From: Deltaproteobacteria bacterium
GTDB lineage: Bacteria; Desulfobacterota; GWC2-55-46
DNA length: 64,000 bases
Direction of reading: 5' to 3'
Assembly (NCBI GenBank): GCA_015075075.1
Contig: JABTVA010000008.1
Span: 50,215-114,214 of the forward strand
Within the stretch, counting starts at the first letter, position 1. Every line of letters starts with the position of its first letter. Position numbers and translations under genes: made by a program. Positions 4,610-61,700 of the stretch are shown here, piece after piece. Under the pieces are notes generated by a model. The model saw nothing but the letters and a program-made list of their open reading frames with translations. It was not told the DNA's origin and ran no database searches.

Positions 4610-4635
4610 TTCCGGTCCTGATCATCGGGGCCAGC

Positions 4636-6441: not shown

Positions 6442-6671
6442 ATGAAGATTGTTGAAGGTTTTCAGGAGTTTACCACCGGGGCCCGCCGGTTTGCAAGCCG
6501 ATATTACCTTTGTCCGGCGCCCCTGGCCTCAAGGTCCGAAATGTATCTGGAGGCAGAAGTGTCGCCGAGCTCAAGCGCCTTTCTCATGCTGGCGTATGAT
6601 CTCTCGAAATTGCCGAGGTGCATATATACCTTGCCGAGGTCAATGTGCGCGGACGGGTCCGAGGGGTCGAG
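6371..6671. repeat. Near-identical ~300-bp segmental duplication, copy A (gene 3 end / intergenic / gene 2 start)
   Basis: Direct sequence comparison. Positions 6380-6612 match 8170-8402 exactly, with scattered mismatches beyond. Confidence 0.9.
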
Positions 6672-8228: not shown

Positions 8229-8461
8229 ATGAAGATTGTTGAAGGTTTTCAGGAGTTTACCACCGGGGCCCGCCGGTTTGCAAGCCGATATTACCTTTGT
8301 CCGGCGCCCCTGGCCTCAAGGTCCGAAATGTATCTGGAGGCAGAAGTGTCGCCGAGCTCAAGCGCCTTTCTCATGCTGGCGTATGATCTTTCGAAATTGC
8401 CGAGGTGCATATATACCTTGCCGAGGTCTATGTGCGCCGAAGGGTCTCCGGGGTCGAGCTC
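8161..8461. repeat. Near-identical ~300-bp segmental duplication, copy B (gene 4 end / intergenic / gene 3 start)
   Basis: See copy A. Includes the identical 62-bp intergenic spacer. Confidence 0.9.
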
Positions 8462-10090: not shown

Positions 10091-10344
10091 TCCTTTTCCC
10101 AGGCTCTTTGCAATAAAGAGCGGCCCTTTCCGGCTGGACTGCTTGCGCGTTAACCGCTTGCAAGCTTTAAGGAAATTGACTCGAGTTCGTCCGTTTAGTC
10201 AGCCAGTATACCATTGCGGGGTTTTGGTTTGCAAGGGTGCCGCGGCCCGGGATTTTTTTGTGCTATTAGGGCGTTTCGCATGATATATTATGACGATTAA
10301 GGACCGAGGAGAGACTCCGCCCCGGCTGGGGCGCGCATTCGCCT

Positions 10345-17469: not shown

Positions 17470-18200
17470 GAAATTCTCGAAAAAGGAGCTTGGAGATATC
17501 CTCGACCTCATCTAGATGTCCGTTGCGTGCCGGGCAGACGAGGACATCCTGAGATTGACAGGGAAAATAAAGGACCTCGTTTGCGCGGACCAGGGTGTAT
17601 GCGGGCTGGGCGGCATCGTTTCAGGCGAGCTCTCGAATATCATCAAGATAGTGAACTATGACTACTCTACCGAGTGGCTTTCCATGTATGCCGCCGAAAA
17701 ACTGTACAAGAACGATCCGATAATCAGGTACAATTACGAGCGCTTCGAGACGCATTTCTGGTCTGAGGCGATCGAGGCTTTCAATGACGAGTCCAGCAGG
17801 GATTTCATGAGGAAGGCTTCTGATTTCGGACTTGTCCACGGCGTGGCAAGCGGCATGCGCGACGGCGGCTCGAAGGGTTCGATATTTTCGTTCTCAAGCT
17901 CCAAGAACCGTTTCAGTAAACACCACAAGGACGTCCTGGACATACTCACCCCGCACGTCCACATGGCGCTGGCGAGGGTCGGAGGCGTCAGGAGCGAAAA
18001 GAGCGGTCCTCAGATCTCGGAAAGGGAAAAAGAGGTCTTGAACTGGATGAAGGAAGGCAAGACCAACTGGGAGATTTCGGTCATTGAACATCAGCGAAAG
18101 GACGGTCAAGTTCCACGTCCAGAATATAGAAAGAAAGCTCAATGCCGTAAATAAGGCTCGTACGATTGCGATAGCGATGGATATCGGGCTGGTAATGTAA
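17459..18200 (+). pseudogene. LuxR-family regulator (autoinducer-binding + LuxR HTH) interrupted by an in-frame TAG (17513-17515) and a -1 frameshift near 18095
   Basis: Paralog of the upstream gene (MDYRKFSKKELGDILDLI*MSVACRADED... vs MPFEDFSKKELISILEIIESAQKCTGADQ...). It has 'YSTEWLSMYAAEKLYKNDPIIRY'. In the -1 frame, 'NISERTVKFHVQNIERKLNAVNKARTIAIAMDIGLVM*' is the LuxR-type HTH. Confidence 0.55.
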
Positions 18201-18239
18201 GATCCATGCAAGGAGCTCGGTCTTCTGTCCGCGCATAGT

Positions 18240-18789
18240 TCCTCGAAAGACCCCAGTCAAGCTCTATCGCGCCCGCGACTACGCCGTCCGGCATCGTGAC
18301 GAAATCCGCCAGCTGCGTTACCGGGAAGCCGCAGAGCCCTCAAAAGCCTGTAGTATCGCTTGTCCACTACCATGACCATGCGCCTTACGCCTCTCAGGGC
18401 GCTCCAATTGTATATGGCCTTGTAAATCAAGCGGGAGATGAGCGACGCGTTCTTCTCCGCTCCTCTTTACGCAGAGCCGGGTGATTTCAGGCCATGTCCG
18501 TCTTTGCGGAACTCGCCCTCGCCGGCATCATGCAGGCGAACTCCTTTCCACCATGAACGGATAAGGATGCGTTATGAGCCTGGCATGTCCGAGAATGCTC
18601 ATGTCCATCCTGAACACGCCGATGCATTCCGCAAACCTGTCATACTCGTCGGTCTCCATCCCGTCCTGCGAGCACCGCACCCACTTGAGTTCCGGGCGAA
18701 GACCTCATGGCGGAGCTAAGCGCCGCCTCGAATTCCTCAGAGCGGAGATGGTCTTTATTGAACCCGCTATCCTCGAATATCAGTTCCAT
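18240..18789 (-). pseudogene. LuxI-family acyl-homoserine-lactone synthase, multiply frameshifted (not in ORF track)
   Basis: Minus-strand translation across three frames gives MELIFEDSGFNKDHLRSEEFEAA | LRHEVFAR | ELKWV..ETDEYDRFAECIGVF...HARLITHPYPF | TWPEITRLCV | LIYKAIYNWSALRGVRRMVMVVDKRYYRLLRAL | PVTQLADFVTMPDGVVAGAIELD. This is colinear with the LuxI blocks LRYQVFKQRLEWDL..ESDEYD, WELSRFA, LFEAIYKHAV..VTVTSTAIERFLKRI. The 3' boundary is uncertain. Confidence 0.55.
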
Positions 18790-19008
18790 GTCCCTTTTAG
18801 CAGGAAGGGGCGGGGTCACGTAACTGGCAGGCATATCAGTTCACTTTATGCGGCGTAGTTGTAAAATAAAAAATTTAATTCCGGGGACCTGGCCAAAGTG
18901 CAGTGGGACCGGGCGGGTAAATGATGTATAATGCTGCCGTTCCGATTTGAGAGAGGGCAGGGCAAAACCCGGTACTTAAGGCGTGCAGGCATCCTGAAAG
19001 GAGTTTGT

Positions 19009-19719
19009 ATGGACGCTGACTACAGGAGGTGCCGTGAGACCGCTTTCAAGGCGCTCATTGGTCCTCATACGGACTCGCGGAGTTCGGCAGGAACGTCTTC
19101 TGGAGCTAATGGTATCGTACGCAGCGCCCAGGAAAGACGCCCGGACGTCTCCGACAGGCTCCTCAGGAGGTTCAGGGGTTTAAAGGCGCCTCGACGCATC
19201 CCGGAAGAGCTTAAGGCCGAGGGCTCGCTGGGCGACGACGGCATAGTGCTCGTCAAGCTATTCAAGGAGATGGCGGGCGCCTATCTTAAGGAGCGGACGG
19301 TCGGGCAGGATGCCGAGGCCGGCATGGCGGACCTCCTCGACTACCTTTGCCTTACGCTATCCGGCGAGAGGGTCGAGAAGTTCTTAGCGGTATACATGGG
19401 GTTCAGGAAAGAGATAATCTCCATAGACGTTCTGCACGAGGGCACCATAAACCAGACCGTCGTGTATCCGAGGAAGGCCATTGAGATGGCCTTCAGGCAT
19501 AACGCCAGGTCGGTCATCTTCGTCCACAACCACCCGAGCGGCGACCCCACGCCGTCGAGCCAGGACAGGCAGCTTACAAGGGTCCTGGACAGGGCCGCTT
19601 CCGCGGTCGACATACTGGTCCTTGACCACCTGATAATCGGCAGGGACAGGCACTTCAGCGCCAGGGAGAACGGCTGGTCGATGGGGCTTCCCTTCAACTG
19701 CATCGCCGCAAGCCCCTGA
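19009..19719 (+). CDS. radC: RadC-family JAB/MPN domain protein
   Basis: C-terminal 'HNHPSGDPTPSSQD' JAMM motif. RBS AAAGGAG precedes the ATG at 19009. Confidence 0.8.
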   Translation: MDADYRRCRETAFKALIGPHTDSRSSAGTSSGANGIVRSAQERRPDVSDRLLRRFRGLKAPRRIPEELKAEGSLGDDGIVLVKLFKEMAGAYLKERTVGQDAEAGMADLLDYLCLTLSGERVEKFLAVYMGFRKEIISIDVLHEGTINQTVVYPRKAIEMAFRHNARSVIFVHNHPSGDPTPSSQDRQLTRVLDRAASAVDILVLDHLIIGRDRHFSARENGWSMGLPFNCIAASP

Positions 19720-19737
19720 TGTCGACTTAAAAGGCCT

Positions 19738-19880
19738 TTGTTGTCATTGCGGAGCTTTGGCTCGAAGCAATCTCAAATGCCCGATATTCCAAAAAATGAG
19801 AGTGCTTCCCGCCACGCTTCGCTCGCGGCTTCGGCTCACACGCTCGCAATGACGAATATGCGAATCAGTCAGAGCTTCCT
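19738..19880. mobile_element. MITE-like element, family B (degenerate copy)
   Basis: Shares the core 'TTGTCATTGC...GATTGCTTCCCGCCACGCTTCGCTCGCGGCTTCGGCTCACACGCTCGCAATGACGAA' with the copy at 22226. The right TIR is degenerate ('GAATCAGTCAGAGCTTCC'). Confidence 0.65.
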
Positions 19881-19912
19881 TAACTTGGTGCTCTTAAGAA
19901 GAGTCGGCCTGT

Positions 19913-22114
19913 TCAATCCGGCCTCTTTGAGCGTTCGAGCGCCTCTGAAACGGCCTTCAAGAGGCTTCCTACCGAATAGGGCTTGGGGAGAAAGCTGTAG
20001 CCTTTTTCCTTGAGGAGAGGCCTCGATGTCTCCTCGGCGTAGCCGCTCGTTATTACCACCGCCATGCCGGGTTTTTTCGTAAGGAGCTCCTCGGCGAGAT
20101 TGAAACCGCTCTTGTCCTTGAGGACAAGGTCCGAAAATAAGACCTTGAGGTCCGGTTCCCTCTGGAACGCCTCCATCGCCTCTTTCGCGTTCCCGGCCTC
20201 GACGACCTTGAACCCGTTATTCGCAAGCGCTGCCTTCGTGAACTCCCTTACCGGCAGGTCGTCCTCGACGAGAAGGACCTTTTCCCCTCCGCCCTTCAAG
20301 GGCTTAACCTCGCGCGCCTCCTTCTCCGGGAGTGCGGCCGGGAAATAGATCTTGAAAATGGTGCCCCTGCCCGGTTCGCTCTTGACAGATATCCACCCCC
20401 GGTGCTGCTTGACTATGCTGTAGACTATGGAGAGCCCGAACCCCGTCCCCTTGCCGGCCTCCTTGGTGGTAAAGAAAGGCTCGAATATCCTGGACAGGAA
20501 CTCCTTCTCAATGCCCACGCCCGTGTCGGCCACGGTAAGGCAGACCGCCTCCCCGGGGCGGGCGTCAGGTACTGATTTGGCCCGGCGCTCGTCTATGAAG
20601 ACGTTTTCCGTCTTTATGGAGAGCGTCCCGCCCGCGGGCATGGCGTCCTTCGCGTTCAGGGCGAGGTTCATGATGACCTGCTCGATATTGCTCTCGTCGG
20701 CCTCTATGGTACAGAGGTCGGGGGCCAGGTCGGTCGAGATGGTGATGTCCTCCCCGATTATGTGGGTGATCATGACCAGGAGCTCATCGACGAGCTTGTT
20801 CACGTTGAGCGGCACGAGCTCGAAGGGCTGGCCGCGGCTGAAGAGGAGGAGCTGCCGGGTAAGCTTGGAGGCGAGCATCACGGAGTTGACAATGCCGTCA
20901 ACGCGCGGGTATGCAGGGTCGGACTTCTTCATTTCCTCGAGGGCCAGCTCTGCATTGCCCCTTATCGCCGTGAGGATGTTGTTGAAGTCGTGCGATATCC
21001 CTCCCGCGAACCTCCCTATTGCCTCCATCTTCTGCGACTGGCTGAGGCGCGCCTGTATGAGCTCCCTTTCGCGTTCGGCGCGCTTCCTTTCGGTTATGTC
21101 CCGGACCATGCCCGTGAAGTGGAGCACACCGCCGAGGGTGAAGTTATTGAGGGCGAGCTCCAGCGGGAATATCTCTCCGTTTTTCCTCAAGCCTTCGAAT
21201 TCGTGTATCCTGCCCTGTACCGTGCTCTCCCCGGTCCTCAAAAACCTTTCAAGCCCCTCCTTGTGGGCCTTCTTGTATTTGTCAGGGACGAGGACCCCGA
21301 CGTCCTGCCCGATGAGCTCTTCCCTGGGATATCCGAATATCCGGGCCGCGCTCTCGTTGCAGTCGATTATCCTGTCCTTTGCGTCGGCTATGATTATGCC
21401 GTCGAATGCGGTATTGTGGACGAGCCGGTACCTGGTCTCGCTCTCCTTCAGGGCCATCTCGGTCTTCTTCCTCTCGGTTATGTCCTCGCCGGAGCTCAAT
21501 GTGCCGGCTGCGATGCCGCCCTCCATCAGCACGGCGTTGTGCCACAGGACGACCCTTTCCTCGCCGCTTCTCGTCAATACCGGGTTCTCGAAATAGCCCT
21601 CGGCCTCCCTGCCGCCGGAGATGAGCCTGGCGAACTCGAACCGAACCTCTTTTTTGAGCCTGGCCGGCAAGAAGTTCTCGACCCAGTCCCTGCCGAGGAC
21701 CTCTTCCTCCCGGTACCCGAGCGTCTGGCAGGCGTTCCTGTTTATAAGGCGCACCTTCCCTTCCCGGTCAAGGACGACCACCATCACCCCTGCCACATCG
21801 AGGTACTTCTGGAACCGGTCCCTTTCCCTCGAAGCCGTCCTCTCGGCCTCCTCGCGTTTTTCAACGAGCGCCATGAGCGGCCTGAATATGAAGAAATAAA
21901 GGATGGGCGAGAGGATGAGCACAAGGAGCGGGGCGTCTATGAAGATGGCATGGACCGGCTCAAGGAAGTCCCTGTAGAAATAGAAGAGCATCATTATAAA
22001 GGCCTCGACGAAGAAAACCGAAAGGACCAGTATGACGATTATCTTTATCGGCGAATAGGTCCGGGCTTCCGTCCTCTGCTCTGGCCTGCCCTGGCGTGAG
22101 GTCTTCTCTTCCAT
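19913..22114 (-). CDS. Hybrid sensor histidine kinase (TM - PAS x2 - HisKA - HATPase_c - receiver)
   Basis: 733 aa. H-box 'SHDFNNILTAIRGNAELA', an ATPase G-box, and a C-terminal receiver 'KVLLVEDD...'. An N-terminal TM segment is present. Confidence 0.85.
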   Translation of the reverse strand: MEEKTSRQGRPEQRTEARTYSPIKIIVILVLSVFFVEAFIMMLFYFYRDFLEPVHAIFIDAPLLVLILSPILYFFIFRPLMALVEKREEAERTASRERDRFQKYLDVAGVMVVVLDREGKVRLINRNACQTLGYREEEVLGRDWVENFLPARLKKEVRFEFARLISGGREAEGYFENPVLTRSGEERVVLWHNAVLMEGGIAAGTLSSGEDITERKKTEMALKESETRYRLVHNTAFDGIIIADAKDRIIDCNESAARIFGYPREELIGQDVGVLVPDKYKKAHKEGLERFLRTGESTVQGRIHEFEGLRKNGEIFPLELALNNFTLGGVLHFTGMVRDITERKRAERERELIQARLSQSQKMEAIGRFAGGISHDFNNILTAIRGNAELALEEMKKSDPAYPRVDGIVNSVMLASKLTRQLLLFSRGQPFELVPLNVNKLVDELLVMITHIIGEDITISTDLAPDLCTIEADESNIEQVIMNLALNAKDAMPAGGTLSIKTENVFIDERRAKSVPDARPGEAVCLTVADTGVGIEKEFLSRIFEPFFTTKEAGKGTGFGLSIVYSIVKQHRGWISVKSEPGRGTIFKIYFPAALPEKEAREVKPLKGGGEKVLLVEDDLPVREFTKAALANNGFKVVEAGNAKEAMEAFQREPDLKVLFSDLVLKDKSGFNLAEELLTKKPGMAVVITSGYAEETSRPLLKEKGYSFLPKPYSVGSLLKAVSEALERSKRPD

Positions 22115-22225
22115 TTTCCTTTTCCTGGAGAAATGTCGCGCTTCTGATTGACGGGTTGAGGTCTTTCCAGGCTGCTATCCCGTTCCGGGCAGCCTGGCAT
22201 CCCGCCGCGGGAATGGGCTGGTTTA

Positions 22226-22398
22226 GGGAAGGTCTGATTAATTCTGTTTTCTGTTGTCATTGCTTAGGAGCTAAAGCTACGAAGCAATCTCTAAGTGCTT
22301 GATTTTCCAAAAGATAAGATTGCTTCCCGCCACGCTTCGCTCGCGGCTTCGGCTCACACGCTCGCAATGACGAACACATTGAATTAATCAGAGCTTCC
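22226..22398. mobile_element. MITE-like element, family B (TIR GGAAG(G/C)TCTGATTAATTC)
   Basis: About 18-bp TIRs enclose an internal hairpin (ATTGCTTAGGAGC / GCTACGAAGCAAT). It lies in the same orientation as the copy at 19738; the two flank the kinase gene. Confidence 0.7.
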
Positions 22399-24032: not shown

Positions 24033-24300
24033 GGCTGCTGAAAAAGCCCAATCTGCTGTGTCGTCTTCAAAGTTGGACACTCCGGCGTACAAGAAAAGTA
24101 CGCCTCATTCCTAAGGAAGCTCTGATTAATTCAATGTGTCGTCATTGCGAGCGAAGTTGAAACAATCTTATCTTTGGAAAATCAAGCATTAGAGATTGCT
24201 TCGGAGCTAAAGCTCCTAAGCAATGACAACAGAAAACAGAATTAATCAGACCTTCCCTAATTTTTCGACTCCTTGCATCTTGAGCTTTTTGAGCAGCCTG
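24033..24300. mobile_element. MITE family C copy interrupted by a nested family B MITE (24120-24251)
   Basis: Left part 24033-24119 and right part 24252-24300 match the intact C copies. The inserted B element carries TIRs 'GGAAGCTCTGATTAATTC / GAATTAATCAGACCTTCC'. Confidence 0.75.
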
Positions 24301-31958: not shown

Positions 31959-31985
31959 CTTTAGATAGCCGTGGGCGGGATATAG

Positions 31986-32124
31986 GCAACCCTGAAAATT
32001 GATCTTTTCCCCGGACTCTGCGTCAGTCCGGGAATAAAAATGCTCACATATTATCCATATATGCTCCGCTTTTTATTCCCGGCCTTCCGGGAAAAGCGGG
32101 AAATCTCTAATTTTTAAGGTTGCC
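31986..32124. mobile_element. MITE family D (TIR GGCAACCYCTAAA / TTTARAGGTTGCC)
   Basis: About 140 bp. Core 'TTTTCCCCGGACTCTGCG...GGGAATAAAAATGCTCACATATT...ATATGCTCCGCTTTTTATTCCCGGCCTTCCGGGAAAAGCGGGAAA'. Four copies in the window. Confidence 0.75.
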
Positions 32125-32974: not shown

Positions 32975-34204
32975 ATGGCAATAGGCGTCCGGGATATCGC
33001 CTGGAGGGCCCTCGTATTCGCCGCGCTCGCGGCTCCACCGGTCTATTTCTTTTCGATAATCCATAAATACGCAGCTAACGTCCCCTACGGGGACGACTAT
33101 TCCGCTATCCTCGATTTCCTTTTAAGATACCAGGACGCCGACGGCGCTCTCCAGAAGCTCGGAATGCTCTTCGCCCAGCATAACGAGCACAGGATAGCGT
33201 TCGGCAATCTCGCGACCGTCGCCATGTATAAGCTCACCGGCACGGTTGACTTCCGGTCCATGATATTCTTCGGGAACGCCGCGCTCCTGGGGCTCGTCCT
33301 GGTATTCTACCGCATGTTCCATGCGTCCGGGAGAAAGCCCCTGTACTTCATCCCCGTGGTCTTATTCCTTTTCCAGTTCCAGTTCGGGCATACGATATTC
33401 TGGGCCAGGCATCGGTCTCGAACTTCTACGTGCTCCTCTTCACTTTCTTCGCTTCTCGTGCTGGAGAGGGGGCGGCCTTTTACATGGCGGCCTTTCTCCT
33501 GGCCGCGCTCGCGTCGGTCACGCAGGAGCGGCATATTCGCCTCGTCTCGTGCGCGCTGCTCCCTGCACTGAAAAGAGACTTAGGGACTGCCGCCTGGGCG
33601 CGCTCTCAGCGTTGTGCTGGCCCTGTTTCGGTTTTACGAGAAGCCACCTGAGCACCCGAGCATGGCCGAGGCTGTTTTTGAAGAGCCGGTCAATACCATC
33701 AGATATTTCTTCACGCTCGCAGGCGCGTCTTTCCCGTTCCCGTTTTTGGCGGGCCTCGTATTCGCCGCCCTTTTCATCGTCCTTACCTTAAAGGGCCATT
33801 ACCGGAAAAACCCGGCGCTCTACTGCGGCATCGTCTATGTCTTCCTTACGGTTGCCGCGACCTCGCTCGCACGTTCTGGCCTTGGAATAGAAGGGGCGCT
33901 CTCGTCGAGGTACAAGATAGTCTCGGCCCTTTTCCCCGTCCTCCTGTACATGGCTTTTTTCGAGCACAAGACGCCCTGGAAGCGGATATTCTTCCCGGCG
34001 GTCCTTGCCGGGGCGCTCGTATTCAATATCCATGCGAATATCATGGAGACGCACAAGGCCCGGAACCTGTCTTATTTGCTGACCGAAGGCATGAAATGGT
34101 GGGCGACCGGGGCGCCGTCGCTAAAGTACCCCGACCAGGAAACGGCCAACCGGATACTCGTCGAGTCCATCAAGCGCGGCATTTACAAGCCGGGTTTCAG
34201 GTAA
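32975..34204 (+). CDS. Integral membrane protein (possible acceptor-side glycosyltransferase), with two compensating frameshifts between ~33400 and ~33600
   Basis: The N-part 32975-33400 and C-part 33614-34204 are in the same frame and hydrophobic. The stretch between reads as membrane-like sequence only in the -1 frame ('...NFYVLLFTFFASRAGEGAAFYMAAFLLAALASV...'). Confidence 0.5.
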
Positions 34205-39067: not shown

Positions 39068-39351
39068 GCAACCTCTAAAAATTGCTATTTTCCCCGGACT
39101 CTGCGTAGTGCGGGAATAAAAATGCTCACATATTCAAAATATATGCTCCGCTTTTTATTCCCGCCTTTCCGGGAAAAGCGGGAAAAATCTCTAAGGAACC
39201 TCTGATTAATTCATGTGTTCGTCATTGCGAGCGAAGCGAAGCAATCTTATCTTTTGGAAAATCAAGCGCTTAGAGATTGCTTCGGAGCTGAAGCTCCGCA
39301 ACGACAAGAAACGAGAATTAATCAGAGCTTCTCTAATTTTTAGAGGTCGCC
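39068..39351. mobile_element. MITE family D with a nested family B MITE (39200-39327)
   Basis: Left D TIR 'GCAACCTCTAAAAATT' at 39068 and right D TIR 'TTTTTAGAGGTCGCC' at 39337-39351. The B element 'CTCTGATTAATTC...GAATTAATCAGAG' is inserted just before the right TIR. Confidence 0.75.
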
Positions 39352-42704: not shown

Positions 42705-43776
42705 GCTCAGGAAAGGGTATACGACAGGGACTTGCGCCGCTGCCGGGGCAAAGGCAGCGGCGCTCTTGCTTCTGGGCGGCCTGAGGCCGGGACACGTGGA
42801 TGTGCCGCTGCCGCGCGGCGGGATCTTGAGGGTGCCGGTAAAGTCGGTTGCCGGCGGAAAGGGTTTTGCGAGGGCCGTAATAGTGAAAGACGCCGGCGAC
42901 GACCCGGATGTGACGGACAAGGCCGAGTTCGTGGCCGAGGTCGAGATGCTCGGCGAGAACGCCAGGCGCGCGTCCGTAAGGGTGAGGGGCGGTAAGGGGG
43001 TAGGGGTCGTTACGAAACCCGGGCTAAAGGTCAGGCCCGGAAAACCCGCCATAAACCCCGTGCCGCTTTCGATGATACGGAAGGCGGTAAGGGAAGCTGC
43101 GGCCCGTTATCATAAGAAGGCGTCCTTCCTCGTGACCATATCCGTGCCGCTTGGAGCAGAGCTTGCCGCCAGGACCATGAACCCCAGGCTCGTCATCGTC
43201 GGCGGCATCTCGATTTTAGGCACTACCGGCATAGTCGAGCCCATGTCCCTTGCCGCGTACACCCATTCCATCTCGTGCGGCGTGAGCGTGGCCGTGGCAA
43301 GCGGACTTCAAGATGTGGTGTTCTCGACCGGCCGGTCGAGCGAAAAGGCCGTGGAGAAAAGGCTCAAGGTCCCGGAGGCGGCCTGCGTACTTACAGGCGA
43401 CCACATGGGCTATGCGCTCAGGGACGCGGCCACGAGGCCGGAAATAAAAAAGGTGGTCGTCGCCGGCCAGTTCGGGAAATTCACCAAGCTCGCCGCTGGG
43501 CGCTTCGAGACGCACTGCGACGACGCGCCCATAGAGCTCGATTTCCTGGCCGGGCTTTGCGAAAGGCTCGGCGCAGGGAAGGCGCTGGCCGGGCGGATAA
43601 GAGAGGCAAATACCGCGAGGCATGCGTTTTTCATGCTAAAGGAAAGCGGCCTTGAGAAGGCGCTGGACGAGGTCTCTATCCTGGTGAAAAGGAATGCGGA
43701 AAGGATACTCGGCAAGGGGAAGTCCGTGACCGCGGTCCTCGTCGGGTATGACGGGGACATAGCTTCGATAAGATGA
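42691..43776 (+). CDS. cbiD: Cobalt-precorrin-5B (C1)-methyltransferase
   Basis: 'LRKGYTTGTCAAAGAKAA' N-terminal signature. Length and order fit CbiD. Confidence 0.85.
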   Translation: MPGRKLRKGYTTGTCAAAGAKAAALLLLGGLRPGHVDVPLPRGGILRVPVKSVAGGKGFARAVIVKDAGDDPDVTDKAEFVAEVEMLGENARRASVRVRGGKGVGVVTKPGLKVRPGKPAINPVPLSMIRKAVREAAARYHKKASFLVTISVPLGAELAARTMNPRLVIVGGISILGTTGIVEPMSLAAYTHSISCGVSVAVASGLQDVVFSTGRSSEKAVEKRLKVPEAACVLTGDHMGYALRDAATRPEIKKVVVAGQFGKFTKLAAGRFETHCDDAPIELDFLAGLCERLGAGKALAGRIREANTARHAFFMLKESGLEKALDEVSILVKRNAERILGKGKSVTAVLVGYDGDIASIR

Positions 43777-47625: not shown

Positions 47626-48674
47626 TGAAAGGGCCGGGATAGCCGTATTCGCGGTGACCCAAAGGGGGCTTAAGGTCTCCAAGAGGCTTGAAGCCGCCCT
47701 TAACGGCGTCAAGGTCTTTTCACCGGAAGAGCTCAAGGACAAGGGCTTGAGGAAAATGGCCGCTTTTGCCTTCAAGCGCTCCGGGGCGCTCGTCTTCGTC
47801 TCTGCGGCGGGCATTGCGATAAGGGCCATAGCCCCGCTCGTCAAGGCCAAGCACCTCGACCCCGCGGTCGTGGTCGTCGACGAGCGGGCGCGTTTCTCAA
47901 TAAGCCTCCTTTCCGGCCACCTCGGCGGCGCCAACAGGCTCGCAGCGGAAATAGCCGCCGCGATCAGGGCGACTCCGGTCATAACGACGGCGACCGAGCT
48001 ATGGGGCCTCCCCTCGGCAGAGGATATCGCGGGGGCCTTCTCGCTCTCGATCGAAAACCCGGGCGGCATAAAGGCCGTAAACTCCGCCATACTGGGAGGC
48101 AGGACCGTCCATGTGGTGGATACCGACATGGCCCGGCTCAAGGCCATTAAGAAGCGGTTCGGGAAGGGCGGTTTCAAATTCACGAAGGGCGCGCCCCGGC
48201 GGCTAAAAGAGGGCGAGGCAATAATACGCGTAACGAGCGGGGCCCGGAAAAACTCCGGTCCGGAAGCAAGGCGTACCCTGATATTTAGGCCCAGGGATGT
48301 CGTCGCGGGCATAGGCTGCGTGAAAGGGCGTCCCTAAAGAGGAATTGAAAAGCCTCAGGGCCGCTCTGAGGAAAGTCGGTATATCGCCGCTTTCGATAAA
48401 GGGCTTCGCTACGATAGAGCTTAAGAGGGGCGAAAAGGGGATAACGGCGCTCGCCAAGGAGATGCGGGTAAGCGTTGAGTATTTCGGGAGCGCGCGGCTT
48501 AAAAAGGTAAAAACCCCTTCTCCGCGCTCCGTTTTCGTAAAAAAGATAACAGGCACGTGGGGGGTGGCCGAGCCTGCCGCCCTCATCTCATCAGGGGCAA
48601 AGGAGCTATGCTTAAGGAAGATAAAGCGCGGCAGGGTGACGGTGGCGCTGGCAAGGGCGCCGTTTACATCATAG
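47609..48674 (+). CDS. cbiG: Cobalt-precorrin-5A hydrolase CbiG, split by an apparent +1 frameshift near 48330
   Basis: N-terminal and middle CbiG domains in 47609-48337 ('...GIGCVKGRP*'). The C-terminal domain continues in another frame at 48345-48674 ('...EELKSLRAALRKVGISPLSIKGFATIELK...'). Confidence 0.65.
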
Positions 48675-49411: not shown

Positions 49412-50583
49412 TGCCGCTTTTCGACCGGGTAATCATTATAGTGTTCGACGGCCTGGGAATGGCGAGCTCCCTGACGCGAAGGCGCAGGCGACGAAGGCCC
49501 CATACGCTCGACAACACCTCCCGCGCGGTCAACGGGCTCAAGGCGCCTGTTCTCGCATCGCTCGGCCTCGGGCACATCGAGGGCGTAAGCGAGATACCGC
49601 GCGTTGAGAGGCCTGCCGCCTCCTTTGGCCGGATGCGCGAGGCCTCGCCCGGGAAGGACACCGCGACCGGACACTGGGAGATGGCGGGGGTCGTGCTCGA
49701 TAAGCCCTTCCCGGTATTCCCCCAGGGCTTCCCGCCCGAGATAATGGAATCGTTTACGAACGAGACCGGCTGGGGCTGGCTCTGGGGCAAGACCGCCTCG
49801 GGCACCGACATTATCGAGCGCTTCGGCGAGGAGCACCTTAGGACCCGCAAACTCATAGTCTACACCTCGGCTGACAGCGTCTTCCAGATAGCCGCCCACG
49901 ATAGCGTGCTGCCCGTGGAAGGACTATACAGGGTATGCGAAAAGACGAGGCTCATTGCTGACTCCTACAATATCGGGCGCGTCATAGCGCGCCCGTTCAC
50001 CGGTCCGCCCGGGGCCTTCACAAGGCTCCCGGCAAGGAAGGACTTTTCGGTCCCGCCGCCGCACGAGACCCTCCTCGACAACATAGCCGAAGCAGGGCTC
50101 GATGTGACGGGCATCGGAAAGATCGGCGACATATTCGTCCACAAAGGCATAACCAGCGAGGTCCACACATCGAGCAACGACGACGGCATGGACAGGACCA
50201 TCGAGGCGATGGAGCGGAAGTCGCGCGGGCTCGTATTCACGAACCTCGTGGACTTCGATACCTACTACGGCCACAGGAACGACGCCAACGGGTTCGCGGA
50301 GGCCCTGGGCCGCATGGATGCCCGCCTCCCTGAGATAATGGAAAGGCTCGGCCCCCGCGATGTGCTTTTCATTACCGGGGACCACGGCTGCGACCCCACG
50401 ACCCCCTCGACCGACCATTCAAGGGAGCATGTACCGCTACTCGTATACGGCGATGCGGTCCGGCCCGGAGTTGACCTCGGCACAAGGCAGACATTCGCAG
50501 ACCTGGGTGCGACGATCGCCTCCGCGCTCGGGGTAAGAGCCCCCAGGAACGGAATTTCTTTCCTCGACCATATCCTCAAGTAG
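49411..50583 (+). CDS. deoB: Phosphopentomutase, with a local frame disruption at ~49455-49500
   Basis: 'TGHWEMAG' and 'ITGDHGCDPT' signatures. The aberrant 'SSLTRRRRRRRP' stretch is replaced by DeoB-like 'GELPDAKA...' in the +2 frame. Confidence 0.8.
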   Translation: MPLFDRVIIIVFDGLGMASSLTRRRRRRRPHTLDNTSRAVNGLKAPVLASLGLGHIEGVSEIPRVERPAASFGRMREASPGKDTATGHWEMAGVVLDKPFPVFPQGFPPEIMESFTNETGWGWLWGKTASGTDIIERFGEEHLRTRKLIVYTSADSVFQIAAHDSVLPVEGLYRVCEKTRLIADSYNIGRVIARPFTGPPGAFTRLPARKDFSVPPPHETLLDNIAEAGLDVTGIGKIGDIFVHKGITSEVHTSSNDDGMDRTIEAMERKSRGLVFTNLVDFDTYYGHRNDANGFAEALGRMDARLPEIMERLGPRDVLFITGDHGCDPTTPSTDHSREHVPLLVYGDAVRPGVDLGTRQTFADLGATIASALGVRAPRNGISFLDHILK

Positions 50584-53005: not shown

Positions 53006-53023
53006 CTTACTGAGGGGCGTGCC

Positions 53024-54449: not shown

Positions 54450-55460
54450 ATGCTGGACATATCCCTGAGAAAAAGGCTCCCCGGCTTCAATGTGGAGGTG
54501 GACCTCTCCGTGGACGAGGAGCTCCTTGTGCTCTTCGGCCCGTCCGGCGCCGGAAAGAGCCTGGTACTCAAGATGATATCCGGCATCGTCGAGCCTGACG
54601 CGGGCCGGGTGGCTGTTGCCAACGAAACGCTCTTCGATTCGGGCATTGGCGTAAACCTCCCCATGAGGATGAGGAAGGTAGGGCACCTCTTCCAGGACTA
54701 CGCGCTTTTCCCGCACATGACCGTATCGGAGAACATAGCCTACGGCATAGGGGGCGGGAACAAGGACGAGGCCCGTAAGAAGGTAGGGGAGCTCATTACC
54801 GTGATGAGGCTTTCGGGGCTTGAAAAGAGGTACCCGCAGGAGCTTTCGGGCGGGCAGAAGCAGAGGACCGCCCTTGCGAGGACCCTTGCGGCAGGGCCCA
54901 GGGTACTCCTCCTTGACGAGCCCTTCTCGGCCCTCGATTATCAGGTCAGGGAAAAGCTCAGGGCCGACCTCCTCAATATCCACCGCATCTACCCGATTAC
55001 GACCGTACTCGTAACGCACGACCTCGAAGAGGCCTTCATGCTGGGCAAAAGGATAGCGGTCATAAATAACGGGACTATCGAGCAGGCCGGCACCCAGGAG
55101 GACGTCTTCTACAGGCCCCTTACGAGGAACGTGGCCCGGTTCATGGGCGTGCGTAATATCTTCTCAGGAAAAGTTGCCGCCCTGGAAGGGGCGCACCTCG
55201 TCATAGACAACCCGGACATAGGCATGGTCAAGGCCCCATTGCCGCCCGGCCCGGCCTTGAGCCCCGGGACTGAAGTCTCTTTCTGCATACGCCCCGAGGA
55301 GATACTCGTCATTAGGCCCGACAGGGTGCTCGGGAAGGTCCAGGACAACATACTGGAATGCATGATAACGGGCACTGTCGGCAGGGGCCTGACCACATAC
55401 TCTACCTGGACGGCAGGAGGGCAGTACCGCCAAAGGCGGAGCTTCCAATTTTGTGCTTAG
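54450..55460 (+). CDS. modC: Molybdate ABC transporter ATPase with C-terminal TOBE-like domain
   Basis: Walker A 'GPSGAGKS', signature 'LSGGQKQR', Walker B 'LLLDEPF'. The last ~25 aa may be frame-disturbed. Confidence 0.8.
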   Translation: MLDISLRKRLPGFNVEVDLSVDEELLVLFGPSGAGKSLVLKMISGIVEPDAGRVAVANETLFDSGIGVNLPMRMRKVGHLFQDYALFPHMTVSENIAYGIGGGNKDEARKKVGELITVMRLSGLEKRYPQELSGGQKQRTALARTLAAGPRVLLLDEPFSALDYQVREKLRADLLNIHRIYPITTVLVTHDLEEAFMLGKRIAVINNGTIEQAGTQEDVFYRPLTRNVARFMGVRNIFSGKVAALEGAHLVIDNPDIGMVKAPLPPGPALSPGTEVSFCIRPEEILVIRPDRVLGKVQDNILECMITGTVGRGLTTYSTWTAGGQYRQRRSFQFCA

Positions 55461-55543
55461 AAAACTTGGACGTGCGGCCAGCGTATCAGTTGTTGAAAAA
55501 GGAGAATATTTGGGTAATAAGATAAAACCCTGAAAAGGTTTCA

Positions 55544-56491
55544 ATGGACACACACCGGCACGACACTCACGGGCATGAGGTTGAAGCCGACTCCGGCCTC
55601 AAAAGGCGCCTCCTCGTATCCATAACGCTTACGAGCGTAATCTTCATTGCCGAGCTCATAGGCGGTTTCCTTACGAACTCGCTCGCCCTCATGACCGACG
55701 CGGCGCACGTCTTCATGGACGTCTTCGCGCTTTCGCTCTCCCTATTCGCCATATACATAGCCGAGCTTCCGCCGACCGAGAAAAGGACCTACGGCTTCCA
55801 CAGGGTCGAGGTCTTCGTGTCGTTCATAAATAGCTTCGTCCTCGTCCTCATAACCGCCTTCATCTTCTACAAGGGCTTCCTCCGGTTCTTCAACCCCGAG
55901 CCGGTCGAGAGCGCCGGGGTGCTCATCGTGGGCTCCATAGGCCTGGTCGTTAACCTGATGGTCGCGAAATGGCTGCACGGCCACGCAAAGTCCGACCTGA
56001 ACGTCAGGAGCGCCTTCATACACGTCGTGGGCGACGCTGCGGCCTCGGTGGGAGTCATAATCTCGGCTGTCGTAATATATTATACTGGATGGTATCCCAT
56101 CGACCCGCTCATAAGCATGGCCATCTGCGCGCTTATCATAAACGGGGCGGTTAAGATAATAAGGGAGTCCTCGCACATACTCCTTGAGGGTGTGCCGAGG
56201 GAGATAGATTTCGGGAGGGTCAGGGACGACATACTCTCGCCCGAGGGCGTAACAGGCGTGCACAGCCTGCACATCTGGTCAATATGCCACAACGTCTACG
56301 CCCTTAGCGCGCACGTGGACATAATCCCGACCCAGAGGTGGAGGATGGGGGAGATATTCAGCGAGATAAACGAGAAGCTCGCGCATGACCACCATATCTT
56401 CTACACCACCCTGCAGGCCGAATGCTCAGGATGCGAGCCGAATGACATATTCCGGAAGATAGCCCACAGGGGGCGCGGACACCTGCATTGA
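55544..56491 (+). CDS. Cation diffusion facilitator family transporter (CzcD/ZitB-like)
   Basis: N-terminal His-rich 'HRHDTHGHE', about 6 TM with 'HVFMD' and 'HVVGD' metal sites, and a C-terminal cytoplasmic domain. Confidence 0.8.
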   Translation: MDTHRHDTHGHEVEADSGLKRRLLVSITLTSVIFIAELIGGFLTNSLALMTDAAHVFMDVFALSLSLFAIYIAELPPTEKRTYGFHRVEVFVSFINSFVLVLITAFIFYKGFLRFFNPEPVESAGVLIVGSIGLVVNLMVAKWLHGHAKSDLNVRSAFIHVVGDAAASVGVIISAVVIYYTGWYPIDPLISMAICALIINGAVKIIRESSHILLEGVPREIDFGRVRDDILSPEGVTGVHSLHIWSICHNVYALSAHVDIIPTQRWRMGEIFSEINEKLAHDHHIFYTTLQAECSGCEPNDIFRKIAHRGRGHLH

Positions 56492-56497
56492 CGTGCG

Positions 56498-56781
56498 GCA
56501 ACCTCTAACAGGCTGCTGAAAAAGTCGTTCTCCGTCGAAGGCTACGTCGCTCGTCACTGCGGCGTACAAGAAAAGTACGCCTCATTCCTCGCTCCTCGAC
56601 GCCTCGCATCTGGAGCTTTTTGAGCAGCCTGAACAAAAACGGAGTTTTTCAGCAAGCTGCCAAGAAAGGATCTTTTCCCCGGACTCTGCTTCGGGCCGGG
56701 AATAAAATGCTATATGCTCCGTTTTTTATTCCCGGCCTTCCGGGAAAAGCGGGAAAAATCTCTGATTTTTTAGAGGTTGCC
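56498..56781. mobile_element. MITE family D with a nested family C MITE (56511-56658)
   Basis: D left TIR 'GGCAACCTCTAACA' at 56498. Directly followed by C 'GGCTGCTGAAAAAG...GAGTTTTTCAGCAAGCTG'. The D body then runs to the right TIR 'TTTTTAGAGGTTGCC' at 56781. Confidence 0.7.
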
Positions 56782-56833
56782 GCCTTATGATATAATTGAA
56801 TGCAGGCCCACAATTCCAGCCCAGGGGGGTGCC

Positions 56834-59277
56834 ATGCCCAGAGAGAAGCGGTTGCCGGTCGAAGAGCTCGCCTGGAGGTGCAGCCCCGAGAGGTTCTCCT
56901 TCGCGACTACTAACGAGCTCGCGTCCCTCCAGGAGATAATAGGCCAGGACAGGGCGCTCCGCTCCATCCAGTTCGGCCTCGGAATAACAAACCACAACTA
57001 TAACATCTTCGTCCTGGGCGACACAGGGGTGGGGAAATCCACCTCGATAAAGGAGATCATAGAGGCCAGGGCCAAGGGCGAGCCCGTGCCGGACGATTGG
57101 TGCTATGTCTTCAACTTCGAGGACGTGGACACGCCGACGGCCATAAGCCTGCCGCCCGGCAGGGGCGCCGACTTCGCCGCCGAAATGGACGAGCTCGTGG
57201 AGACGCTGCTGCGCGACATACCCAAAGTCTTCGAGTCAAAGGACTACGAGAAGCACAGGGACGAGATAATCGAGGGGCAGCAGGAACGGACGAGGTCTCT
57301 CTTTTTCAGGCTCGAGCAGAGGGCCATGGAAAGGGGGCTCGTCCTCAAGAAGACCGTTAGCGGCTTAGCGGTAGTGCCTGCCAAGAACGGCAAGCCCATG
57401 AGCCAGGAGGAGTTCGAGTCCCTGCCGCCAGAGCGGAGGGCCATGATAGAGCAGGACCTGGCCGTCATGCAGGACAAGCTCTCGGACGCCGTCAGGGAGG
57501 CCCGGAACATAGAGAAGGAGACCAAGGAGCGGATAAACGCCCTCGACAGGGAGGTCGTCCAATACGTGGTGAACCCCGCGATAAACGAGCTCCTCGATAA
57601 GTTCAAGGAGTTCAAGGGGGTTGTGGACTACCTCTACAAGGTCAAGGAGAATATCCTGAATAACATCGACGACTTCAGGCCCAAGGAGGAGGTCCCGCTC
57701 GCCATCGGGGGCCTCCGGCTCCAGAAGCCCGAGCCCTCCTTCGAGCGCTACAAGGTGAACCTCTTCGTCGGCAACAGGGAGTCCGAGGGCGCGCCTGTCG
57801 TGTACGAGTCCAACCCCACATACACCAACCTCTTCGGGAGGATCGAGTACAAGGTGCAGCTCGGGGCCGCCACCACCGACTTCACCATGGTAAAGCCCGG
57901 GAGCGTGCACAAGGCAAACGGCGGCTATCTCATCGTCAACGCCCTTGACATACTACGGAACATATTCGTATACGATTCTCTGAAGAGGATGATAAAGAAC
58001 AGGGAGGCGCGCATAGAGGACCCGTGGGAGCAGTACAGGATCGTATCCGCCACGACTTTAAAGCCGGCGCCCATCCCCGTGAACATAAAGCTCGTCATCA
58101 TAGGCGAGCCGTTCATCTACTACCTCCTCTACAACCTCGATACCGAATACAGGAAGTCTTCAAGGTCAAGGCCGACTTCGATACCGTCATGCCGAGGACC
58201 GACGCGAATATCGAGAAGTACGCGTATCATCGCCACCTGGTGCAGGAGGAGGGGCTCATACCCTTCGACAGGACCGGTGTGGGAAAGGTCGTGGAGTTCG
58301 GCGCGCGGCTTGCCGGCGACAGGGAGAAGCTCTCGGCCAGATTTAACGAGGTGACGAACATCATCGTGGAGGCGAGCTACTGGGCCGGTGTCGAGGGGTC
58401 CGGGACCGTCTCGGCCTCGCACGTGGAGAAGGCCGATTCAGAGCGGGTCTACAGGAACTCGAAGTTATCCGATGGAGCCCGACTACATAAGGGAAGATAC
58501 GCTTATGGTCGCCACCGTTGGAAAGATGGCTGCAGGTGAACGGCCTTGCCATCCTCGACCTGGGCGACTACGCCTTCGGCAAGCCTTCGAGGGTAACGGC
58601 CAGGGTCTTCATGGGAGATGCCGGGGTCGTCAACATAGAGCGGGAAGTGAAGATGAGCGGCCGCATACACAACAAGGCCCTCATGATATTCACGAGCTTT
58701 CTGGGCGAGAGGTTCGCCCAGAGTTCCTCTCACCCTCTCGGCGTCCATAACCTTCGAGCAGCTTTATGGAGGATAGAGGGCGACAGCGCGACATGCACGG
58801 AGATATCGCTCCTTATTTCGCCTCTGGCGTGCCTCTGACCAGGACATAGCGGTAACCGGCTCAATGAACCAGCGGGGCGAGGTCCAGCCCATAGCGGCGT
58901 GAACGAGAAGATAGGCGATTTTCGAGATATAAGCGCTGGCGGGCTCACCGGCGGACGGGGTCATAATACCCAGAAGGAACGTCAAGAACCTGATGTCAGA
59001 GGAGGTAATATAGAGGGCAGCGACGGCAAGTTCGCGATATACCCCATAGAGCACGTTGACGAGGGTCTCGAGATATTGACCGGCATGCCGGTCGGGGAAA
59101 GGGACGAGAAGGGAGGCTTCCCTGAGGGGAGCGTGAACCGGCTTGTCGAGGCGAGGCTGGGTCGCCGCTAAGAGCTTCAAGGAGTTCGGAAGGCCCCCGC
59201 CAAAGGAACTGGCCGGCGGCGGAATGGGAGAGGCCGCGAAGGGCACGGACAAGAAGGACGGGAAGGACGGGAAATAA
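56834..59277 (+). pseudogene. Lon-like AAA+ protease (LonB/LonC-type), C-terminal half disrupted by >=6 frameshifts
   Basis: Intact N-part to ~58150 has Walker A 'VLGDTGVGKST'. Downstream Lon S16 blocks are scattered over three frames, e.g. 'LAILDLGDYAFGKPSRVTARVFMGDAGVVNIEREVKMSGRIHNKALMI' and 'PLTQDIAVTGSMNQRGEVQPI'. Confidence 0.6.
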
Positions 59278-59281
59278 GAAG

Positions 59282-59900
59282 ATGCTGGTCTATGAGATAT
59301 TCAAGAGTATCCAGGGGGAGTCGGCCGGCGCTGGCTCCCTGTGTTTTCATAAGGCTTGCGGGCTGCAACCTCGGGTGCAGGTGGTGCGACACCCCTTACG
59401 CCAGGGTCCCTGACGGCGAATGAGCTTCGATAGACGAGGTCATGAGGAGGTTACGCCTACGGGACTGCAGGCTGGTCGAGATAACGGGGCGCCGCTCCAG
59501 GAGGAGACGAAAGAGCTGGCCCGATGCTCGCAGGACAGGGGCGGACCGTGCTCATGGAGACCAACGGCTCCGTGCCGGTCTCAGGCCTCGACGAGAGGGT
59601 CATAAAGATAGTCGATGTGAAGTGCCCGTCCAGCGGGCACGCCGGCTCCTTTCTCCTGAAAACCTCTCCCACATAACCCCGGAGGACGAGGTAAAGCTCG
59701 TGGTCGCGGACAGGGGCGACTACGACTGGGCCAAGGAGTTCATTGAAGAGGTGCTAGGGAAGGAACCGAAAAGTGCTTTTGCGCCCGTGAGGCCCCGATC
59801 TAATCCCAGTGACCCGCCGCCTGATACTTAGGACGGCTGCGGGTCAGTCAGCTCCAGCCCATTCCCACATATGGCCGGAAGAGCGCGGCAGGGCTTTACT
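59282..59900 (+). pseudogene. queE: 7-carboxy-7-deazaguanine synthase, multiply frameshifted
   Basis: '[13 protein letters not shown]..' continues in other frames as '[21 protein letters not shown]', 'VEITGGEP.LQEETKELARCSQDRG' and 'VLMETNGSVPVSGLDERVIKIVDVKCPSSGHAG'. Confidence 0.55.
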
Positions 59901-59930
59901 TTCGGCCTCAATCTGTAAAATCCCTGATAT

Positions 59931-60066
59931 GGCAACCTCTAAAGTGATCTTTTCCCCGGATCTCTTAGTCAGGCCGGAAATAAAATGCTCACATATTGTC
60001 ATATATGCTCCGCTTTTATTCGGCCTTCCTCGATTGTGAGGAAAATCTCCAATTTTAGAGGTTGCC
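59931..60066. mobile_element. MITE family D (intact, perfect TIRs GGCAACCTCTAAA / TTTAGAGGTTGCC)
   Basis: Perfect 13-bp TIRs. The body is homologous to the other D copies. Confidence 0.8.
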
Positions 60067-60157
60067 ATGAATGATATGAACGGAGCCGTCCGGCTTCCTG
60101 CATAGCATCGGGCCCGGCCTGCCGGGTCCGGACACTTAGGAGAGTGTTGGCAGCACG

Positions 60158-60925
60158 ATGAAGCCGTTCCTTATAGCCGCAATTACACTCTATGCCCTGA
60201 GCGTAATCACCGTCGTAATCCACCACGCCTCCGGCTCGGAAAAAGCTCGGGAGCGCGTCCAAATGGCCTCGTCCTGGGCCTCCTTTCGTCCATTCTGGGC
60301 CTAATCGAGCGCATCGTAACAACGGGGCATGCGCCGATGGCCTCCATGTACGAAACGCTCGTCTTTTTCAGCTGGACGACCGTGCTCGTGAGCGCGGTCG
60401 TGATATTCAGGTACGACGAGCGGGAGACCGAGGTCATAACCCTGCCCGTAGCCGTCCTCGCCTCTCTTCTTCGCCCTCGAACGAGAAACCGGGCCGCTTA
60501 CGCTCGTCCTCCGCACCGTCTGGTTCCGAGACGCATCGCTATCCTCCTCGCGGCCTACGCGCTTACCGCGCCTTCTCCGAGCGGTCATATACTTCTGGAA
60601 GAATGAAGGGGTCCGGGCGGAGGACATAAAGAAGTTCCAGGAGATAGCCGCAAAGAGCATATTATGGGGCTTCTTTTTCTTCTCGGCCTCCATGTTCGCC
60701 GGCGCGGTATGGGCGTATCTCGCCTGGGGCACCTACTGGCTCTGGGAGCCTAAGGTAATATGGTCGTTCATAGTCTGGTTCTATTACGCGGGGGCCATGC
60801 ACGCGTGGTACGTGAGGGAGTGGCGCGGCGTGGGGCTCTCCATCGCTACGGTCCTGGGCTTTTTCGTCGTCCTCTTCACCTACCTCGGCGTATCGCTCCT
60901 CATGAAGAGCAGCCACAGCTTCTGA
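60158..60925 (+). pseudogene. ccsA: Cytochrome c-type biogenesis protein CcsA (system II), frameshifted at >=3 sites
   Basis: WWD-type tryptophan-rich motif 'WAYLAWGTYWLWEPKV' with conserved His residues. The N-terminal and middle TM segments lie in different frames (ORFs 60337-60606 and 60692-60925). Confidence 0.55.
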
Positions 60926-60947
60926 GCGCGCGAAACCACCAGCGCGC

Positions 60948-61700
60948 CTATTTTGCCCTCCCCTTCCTCCACCACATGACAGCCGACCTCTTGTGGAACT
61001 TCGCAAGCAGCACGCCCTTTTTCCTGACGAGCTTGCCTCCGAGATAGTCCCTTAATTTCCTGTCGTGCTCCTCGGTCACGATGCCGATGTACTCCTTCCA
61101 GAACTCGATTGCCTCGTCCAGGCTCTCGAAAGGCTGGTCGAAATCGTATTCGATTATCTCGACGTTCGCAAAGACGCCGAGCGAGTGGAGCGCGGAGTAG
61201 GTCTTGAAGTAGTCGGCCCTCTCGCCGAAGGGCTTGTTGAAGAGTAGCGGATAGAGCTCCCTGTAGTAGAACTTGTCGGCCGTGGGGTCTGCGTTCTCGA
61301 TGATGAATACGGCCTTCCTCGCAAGGCGGTCCATCTCCTTGAGGTTCGCCTCGGGCTCGGCGAGTAGCGTGGGGACGTTCGCGCAGATGACCGCGTCGTG
61401 CTGCCTGATCTCCACCTTCCCCCATTCCGCCTGCACAGGCCTTATGTTCCGTATCTTGTCCCTCGCCATGTCCTCCCTGAGTATCTCGATCATGGCAGCC
61501 GACGAGTCGAGCGCCGTAACGCTTTTCCCGGCCTTTGCAAGCGGCATGGCAAGAGTACCGCACCCCGCGCCTATGTCGAGGAAGGTCTTCGCGTCAGCGG
61601 CCCTCGGGAGTATCACAGAGAGCGCCTTCTCGGGAAAATCGGTGTAATCCAGCCCTTTCCTGTACCAATTGGCCTTCAGCCTGTTCCAGAAACCCTGCAT
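60948..61700 (-). CDS. Class I SAM-dependent methyltransferase
   Basis: Motif I 'LDIGAGCGTLA', 250 aa. Confidence 0.75.
   Translation of the reverse strand: MQGFWNRLKANWYRKGLDYTDFPEKALSVILPRAADAKTFLDIGAGCGTLAMPLAKAGKSVTALDSSAAMIEILREDMARDKIRNIRPVQAEWGKVEIRQHDAVICANVPTLLAEPEANLKEMDRLARKAVFIIENADPTADKFYYRELYPLLFNKPFGERADYFKTYSALHSLGVFANVEIIEYDFDQPFESLDEAIEFWKEYIGIVTEEHDRKLRDYLGGKLVRKKGVLLAKFHKRSAVMWWRKGRAK

Follow-up and report, generated by a model that had tools for sequence, protein, structure and literature searches.

[quoted passage not shown] False pseudogenes that stem from unpolished long-read-type sequence are an artefact of a kind that is already known. Bacterial genomes undergoing decay, in host-restricted or recently niche-shifted lineages, also contain clusters of pseudogenes, and the locus described here resembles these clusters in that adjacent genes carry multiple frameshifts. 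The genes concerned encode a Lon-like protease, QueE (7-carboxy-7-deazaguanine synthase, a radical SAM enzyme) and a protein of the CcsA family involved in cytochrome c assembly.

Three genes read by changing frame

The window is the whole 64-kb stretch of DNA that was analysed. On its plus strand, between positions 58157 and 60608, coding sequence can be followed only through repeated changes of frame, as is apparent both from the listing of open reading frames (ORFs) and from a three-frame translation of positions 58000-61050. The genes hit are that for the Lon-like protease from codon 442 onwards, the whole of queE and the first 60% of the ccsA-family gene. An earlier note on this DNA had claimed, for positions 58140-60925, that three consecutive genes could be read only by hopping between frames, and this is confirmed by alignment against both orthologues and a same-strain reference. 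The identities it gave to the three genes are borne out, for queE and ccsA at family level, by domain searches on intact orthologues. The frame changes are thus present in the sequence, but their edges have to be redrawn: the first lesion lies at 58157, 17 nt past the start originally given, and the last at 60608.

The breaks were mapped by frameshift-aware protein-to-DNA alignment, with the intact orthologues of the metagenome-assembled genome (MAG) UBA5799 (L001) as queries. At least 29 frameshifts are needed to align the three genes, with minima of 13, 10 and six for the Lon-like gene, queE and ccsA, respectively; 27 are deletions and two are insertions, and a further 13 codons are missing. 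In this alignment, frameshifts and lost codons span positions 58157-60604, whilst codons 1-441 of the Lon-like gene and the last 105 codons of ccsA are free of indels.

In the species-representative collection UBA5799 comes closest, at ~82-92% DNA identity, and scans of metagenomes found nothing closer than this GTDB relative. All three of its genes are intact, encoding a Lon-like protein of 821 amino acids, a radical-SAM QueE of 213 amino acids and a PF01578 CcsA-family protein of 260 amino acids. Among related loci, drawn from genomes as well as metagenomes, 37 of 37 keep the lon-queE-ccsA order, and up to the limit of the contig each gene is matched in one unbroken piece. The Pfam domains AAA_32, LonB_AAA-LID, LonC_helical and Lon_C are found in the UBA5799 Lon-like orthologue and are also listed for the 824-amino acid protein of the same-strain reference; against TIGR00764 the Lon-like protein scores 167 bits, under the cut-off of 516.6. 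QueE matches the radical SAM family PF04055 and has TIGR04349 as its best NCBIfam match (225.9 bits, where the cut-off is 300), whilst the CcsA-family protein scores 123.6 bits with PF01578 (cut-off 29.9) and 156.1 bits with TIGR03144, under the cut-off of 187.6. Because both proteins score below the NCBIfam equivalog cut-offs, the roles given to QueE and the CcsA-family protein are family-level assignments. No gene for a ResB/CcsB partner is found adjacent to the ccsA-family gene. Within their families the Lon-like, queE and ccsA-family genes are nothing out of the ordinary, and their order is conserved across the clade.

Independent assemblies of the same strain

A same-strain reference was located by exact look-up of the methyltransferase protein encoded next to the disrupted genes (60948-61700, minus strand). 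The identical protein was found in three places: the GenBank MAG contig JASNYS010000004.1 and the Logan assemblies of SRR11593520 and SRR19543874. The first of these (GCA_048500075.1; 182,602 bp) matches the window over all 64 kb and was used as the reference, with further exact look-ups along the contig and a stretch-by-stretch alignment providing a census of the whole window. Its genes neighbouring the methyltransferase gene are intact, encoding a CcsA-family protein of 260 amino acids, QueE of 213, a Lon-like protein of 824, a cation-efflux protein of 316 and a modC product of 362, and the 824-, 213- and 260-amino acid proteins carry the expected Pfam domains.

Between positions 51054 and 64000, window and reference differ at 142 sites, all of which lie in either 55389-55579 (Patch A) or 58157-60608 (Patch B), and the remaining 10 kb are identical. 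Patch B is a 2452-nt tract in which the consensus is dense in errors: it departs from the reference at 124 sites (73 deletions, 17 insertions and 34 substitutions; 5.1 per 100 nt), whereas its flanks show zero differences over 2577 nt upstream and 3392 nt downstream. Within the three coding sequences, 77 of the differences are frame-shifting indels. The gene for the Lon-like (LonB/LonC-type) AAA+ protease (56834..59277, plus strand) is clean for its first 1323 nt, to position 58156 in codon 441, and has 49 lesions from there on, 33 of which shift the frame; its true product has 824 amino acids. The queE gene (59282..59893, plus strand; true product 213 amino acids) has 36 lesions, 27 of them frame-shifting, and lacks its stop codon as a result of a 4-nt deletion at 59890. 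In the ccsA-family (PF01578) gene (60158..60925, plus strand; true product 260 amino acids) there are 21 lesions up to position 60608, of which 17 are frame-shifting, and the final 317 nt are clean. The borders of Patch B therefore ignore gene structure, the patch starting at codon 442 of one gene and ending 317 nt before the stop codon of another. The intergenic stretch between queE and ccsA (59894-60157) is no better preserved, with 18 lesions in 264 nt, a density at least as high as that of the coding parts.

This intergenic stretch includes a MITE-like repeat copy (59926..60066). MITEs had previously been placed at both ends of the patch but this is not how they lie: one copy is inside (~59926-60066) and the other is 1.4 kb upstream (~56665-56781). 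A comparison of MITE copies was tried as proof of excess deletions in the copy within the patch and was rejected, as the natural variation between copies is too large; the same-strain reference settled the point.

The reference does not stand alone: a second MAG and Logan assemblies from other runs concur with it at every point of overlap. Logan contigs of SRR11593520 and SRR19543874 are 100% identical to it across 60014-60608 and beyond, and the intact Lon and QueE proteins are likewise on record, as exact matches, from Logan assemblies. The second MAG, GCA_023384475.1 (476,205-bp contig), was compared with GCA_048500075.1 along two stretches of 21 kb, with identities of 100% and 99.995%, and the exact intact proteins are recorded from this second MAG as MCL4873028.1 (Lon), MCL4873027.1 (QueE) and MCL4873026.1 (CcsA). 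All 124 Patch B lesions are absent from GCA_048500075.1, and the lesion signature is missing from at least five other assemblies. A literature search on the accession numbers gave no match.

In other assemblies of the same strain, then, all three genes are intact, and the lesions are private to the assembly of the window, confined to patches and blind to gene borders. Since the other same-strain assemblies match the flanks of Patch B exactly and carry all three genes intact, the verdict is one of false pseudogenes: we are close to certain that consensus quality failed locally over 58157-60608, where uncorrected sequencing errors of a single assembly remain. The earlier note had itself proposed that the restoration of continuous ORFs by corrected reads would overturn the pseudogene reading, and continuous ORFs for all three genes are what the independent same-strain assemblies in effect supply.

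Patches of the same kind elsewhere in the window

Over the whole 64-kb window there are 222 sites that differ from the reference (132 deletions, 24 insertions and 66 substitutions), falling into eight clusters and ~14 single sites. Six of the clusters lie at 18083-19200 (33 events), 19737-20086 (seven), 24139-24189 (six), 33408-33649 (14), 48321-48354 (three) and 49461-49499 (four), followed by Patch A (55389..55579), with 18 lesions of the same kind as those in Patch B, and by Patch B itself, which is by far the largest. That 124 of 222 differences should fall by chance in 2452 of ~61,000 nt has a binomial P of ~1e-110. The seven smaller patches are of the same kind as Patch B and break other, unrelated genes of the window. 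The earlier view of an otherwise largely intact window holds only for the most part, given these seven patches.

Two genes are hit by Patch A, modC at its 3' end and the cation-efflux gene at its 5' end. Both of these genes are intact in a Logan contig (L178). An exact-protein look-up with the cation-efflux protein of the window found no match, because Patch A alters that protein.

Several other candidate frameshifts in the window were rejected. Those at ~26.0, 36.4 and 41.2 kb, suggested by ORF overlaps and by frame switches in codon usage, are ordinary adjacent genes, and an apparent frameshift at 53016 turns out to precede the true start codon.

Character of the lesions and alternative explanations

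Most deletions in the window are very short (90 of 1 nt, 31 of 2 nt and 11 of 3-4 nt). Of the 1-nt deletions window-wide, 40% fall in homopolymer runs of at least 3, compared with 17.6% expected, and one third are in non-repeated bases. The lesions are bursty, with a variance of 6.2 against a mean of 2.5 per 50 nt (a variance-to-mean ratio of 2.5), and a search for motifs around them found none that is strongly enriched. A deletion-to-insertion ratio above 5, enrichment in homopolymers and occurrence in bursts are what a low-depth, nanopore-type consensus looks like. In natural mutation spectra, substitutions outnumber indels.

The earlier note had offered two alternatives, a low-coverage or poorly polished patch and a genuine pseudogene island. 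In the latter case, the accumulation of frameshifts would truly have deprived the strain of all three proteins. This second alternative draws on the frameshifts being present in the deposited sequence, on the annotation in GenBank of a truncated product (MBE7415178.1, which an exact-sequence look-up equates with the 506-amino acid truncated Lon product of the window sequence) and on the absence of a second copy of queE or ccsA within the 64-kb window. We nevertheless regard it as highly improbable. Ordinary mutation cannot produce 124 differences in one tract and zero in the flanks, and the 90 indels and 34 substitutions of Patch B are the opposite of what is generally known of natural spectra. 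The distribution of the lesions within the genes is equally hard to reconcile with decay: the already broken Lon gene is spared over its 5' 1323 nt and ccsA over its 3' 317 nt, yet a dead gene with dozens of frameshifts should not retain a lesion-free 5' half.

Measured against the UBA5799 orthologues, which are from a different species, omega within Patch B comes to 0.12 in the Lon part and to 0.2-0.3 (up to 0.28) in queE and ccsA, well under 1 rather than near it; the clean parts give 0.04-0.09. Substitutions in Patch B relative to these orthologues fall mainly at third codon positions and are mostly synonymous, a pattern in which selection is still visible in the tract. Further evidence against a pseudogene island comes from the seven additional patches in unrelated genes, from the relatives, all of which keep the three genes intact as far as their contigs reach, and from the absence of the lesions in at least five other assemblies. 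Of the two alternatives, the poorly covered or poorly polished patch is thus supported, whilst the pseudogene island is refuted together with the consequence for cytochrome c maturation that had been attached to it.

Less probable still is a real but unusual local process, be it hypermutation, error-prone repair, an exchange for a decayed allele of some minority subpopulation, or a DNA modification that derailed base-calling. The errors are indeed patchy and bursty rather than uniform, and the sequence alone would be compatible with the assembler having taken a minority haplotype. Against this, the lesions share no strongly enriched motif, the same signature occurs at eight unrelated places and at least five other assemblies have none of it. 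We know of no natural process that makes ~5% of mostly 1-2-nt deletions over 2.5 kb. There is only the slightest chance that the patches mark some physical or population feature, for example a damaged minority haplotype or a local DNA modification affecting base-calling. That the largest patch contains a gene of the 7-deazaguanine pathway (queE) is a curious observation beside the idea of DNA modification.

Finally, expression of the three genes by recoding, through programmed ribosomal frameshifting or transcriptional slippage, has nothing to recommend it beyond the presence of frameshifts and can be dismissed: the 77 frame-shifting indels are spread over three genes rather than being limited to one conserved slippery site or a handful of them, one in three of the 1-nt deletions in the whole window lies outside repeated bases, and both the orthologues and the same-strain copies are plain continuous ORFs.

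Probable origin of the consensus errors

How might uncorrected errors come to be concentrated in this way? In the explanation that we favour, a local failure of consensus quality, the contig would have been assembled from, or bridged by, error-prone long reads and would then have been corrected to short-read accuracy nearly everywhere along its length. In a few stretches correction would have failed, so that raw-read-like errors, mostly 1-2-nt deletions at ~5 per 100 nt, were kept. Low depth, failed polishing and a long-read bridge are all candidates for the direct cause. The spectrum of the errors is nanopore-like, and from this we infer that they originate in error-prone long reads from a platform of that type; the stretches concerned probably lay outside the coverage of short-read polishing or of the short-read contigs. 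Short-read polishers can fail locally.

In the short-read (Logan) assemblies, contig breaks fall on MITE copies, namely at positions 39315, 52601/52616, ~56540 and 60014 of the window. Patch B straddles the break at 60014, and there are repeats close to two micro-patches. The edges of Patch B, however, do not coincide with breaks in the Logan contigs (those at 56.5 kb and 60.0 kb, both on MITE copies), so that a simple long-read-filled gap between short-read contigs does not fit exactly, and the patch at 33408-33649 is in the middle of a short-read contig. The breaks therefore do not single out one step of the pipeline as the one that failed.

Implications and comparison with known systems

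The disruption of the three genes has no biological significance, in that the organism retains its Lon-like protease, QueE and CcsA-family genes. As these genes are intact in the strain, nothing can be inferred from the window about a loss of cytochrome c maturation or of queuosine synthesis. The consequences are instead for users of the deposited MAG. The entry MBE7415178.1 comes from a MAG contig of 119,128 bp, evidently the source of the window, and no fewer than eight error patches within 64 kb give rise to false pseudogenes and to truncated database entries of this sort. Statistics on gene loss or pseudogenes drawn from this MAG would be inflated.

Viewed as members of known families, the proteins of this locus are a LonB/LonC-type Lon-like protease, a QueE of the queuosine/7-deazaguanine pathway and a member of the CcsA/ResC family, whose haem-handling membrane proteins act in system II cytochrome c maturation. 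In the same strain and in the orthologues, the intact proteins have the expected Pfam domains. The likeness to the pseudogene clusters of decaying genomes does not extend beyond adjacent genes with multiple frameshifts. Real decay is marked by substitutions in excess of indels, by lesions along whole genes, by reproducibility and by accompanying divergence, and all four fail here.

A much closer parallel is provided by the gene-fragmenting indel errors of long-read and hybrid assemblies, which are described in the literature (PMC12007338). The locus shares with such errors a predominance of indels, a bias towards deletions, an enrichment in homopolymers and an occurrence at several places in one assembly, whose ORFs are broken when those of accurate assemblies of the same genome are not. 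It differs in the way that the errors are distributed: rather than a uniform sprinkling over homopolymers, they form dense patches (3-12 per 100 nt) between many kb of exact sequence, a pattern that points to a local failure of polishing or coverage.

Further error patches and isolated differences

The second-largest error patch in the window, at 18083-19200, carries 33 events (deletions, insertions or substitutions) relative to the same-strain reference contig JASNYS010000004.1 and is followed by a cluster of seven at 19737-20086. Between them, these two clusters break the end of a LuxR-type gene, a gene for a LuxI-type acyl-homoserine-lactone synthase (PF00765) and radC. At this locus the reference encodes two Autoind_bind proteins and the synthase, with a cytochrome c7 gene beside them. 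The two Autoind_bind proteins and the LuxI-type synthase constitute a set of quorum-sensing genes, here carried by a Thermodesulfobacteriota-like MAG.

Other lesions, either small patches rich in deletions or single indels, are found at 33408-33649, 48321-48354, 49461-49499, 55389-55579, 24139-24189, 14104 and 6516. They disrupt an unknown gene of 415 aa, cbiG, a metalloenzyme-family gene and an MshEN/T2SSE ATPase gene (at its start), as well as the modC 3' end together with the 5' end of the cation-efflux gene. Every one of these genes is intact in the same-strain reference.

At 9727, 20086, 34071, 38554, 40814, 43193-43320, 44569 and 45303 the window departs from the reference by isolated single bases. 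Nearly all of these changes are transversions (five are T>G), whereas substitutions within the patches are mostly transitions; the isolated differences may represent another class of error or real SNPs.

Repeat families and other gene clusters

Copies of a MITE-like repeat of ~140 nt, conserved in its core and ends, lie at about 31979-32124, 39068-39192, 56665-56781 and 59926-60066, with a further copy at 9813-9940 of L001, the different-species MAG UBA5799. Logan short-read contigs (assemblies of other public sequencing runs) from several runs stop at or beside MITE-like copies, at 39315, 52601/52616, about 56540 and 60014. A second repeat family occupies 19739-19882, 22223-22326, 24159-24260 and 39191-39341, and the lesion at 24139-24189 falls in part inside a repeat copy.

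Four TPR-repeat protein genes (500-600 aa each) are arranged in tandem on the minus strand at 3101-10198, two of them having in common an internal stretch of ~1.6 kb with ~80% DNA identity (5162-6776 versus 6943-8563). At about 37.9-49.4 kb lies a long cluster for anaerobic cobalamin biosynthesis and cobalt transport (CbiK/X/C, CbiM, CbiQ, a CbiO-like ABC ATPase, CbtB, CbiD, several TP_methylase genes and CbiG), which contains one of the micro-patches.

Comparison with a related species

The cation-efflux and Lon-like genes (55537-59265) show 91-92% DNA identity to UBA5799, and the N-terminal half of the Lon-like protein 99% protein identity, against just 82-84% identity for the flanking genes. 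Either unusually strong conservation of these genes or a recent exchange of DNA with the UBA5799 lineage could account for the difference.
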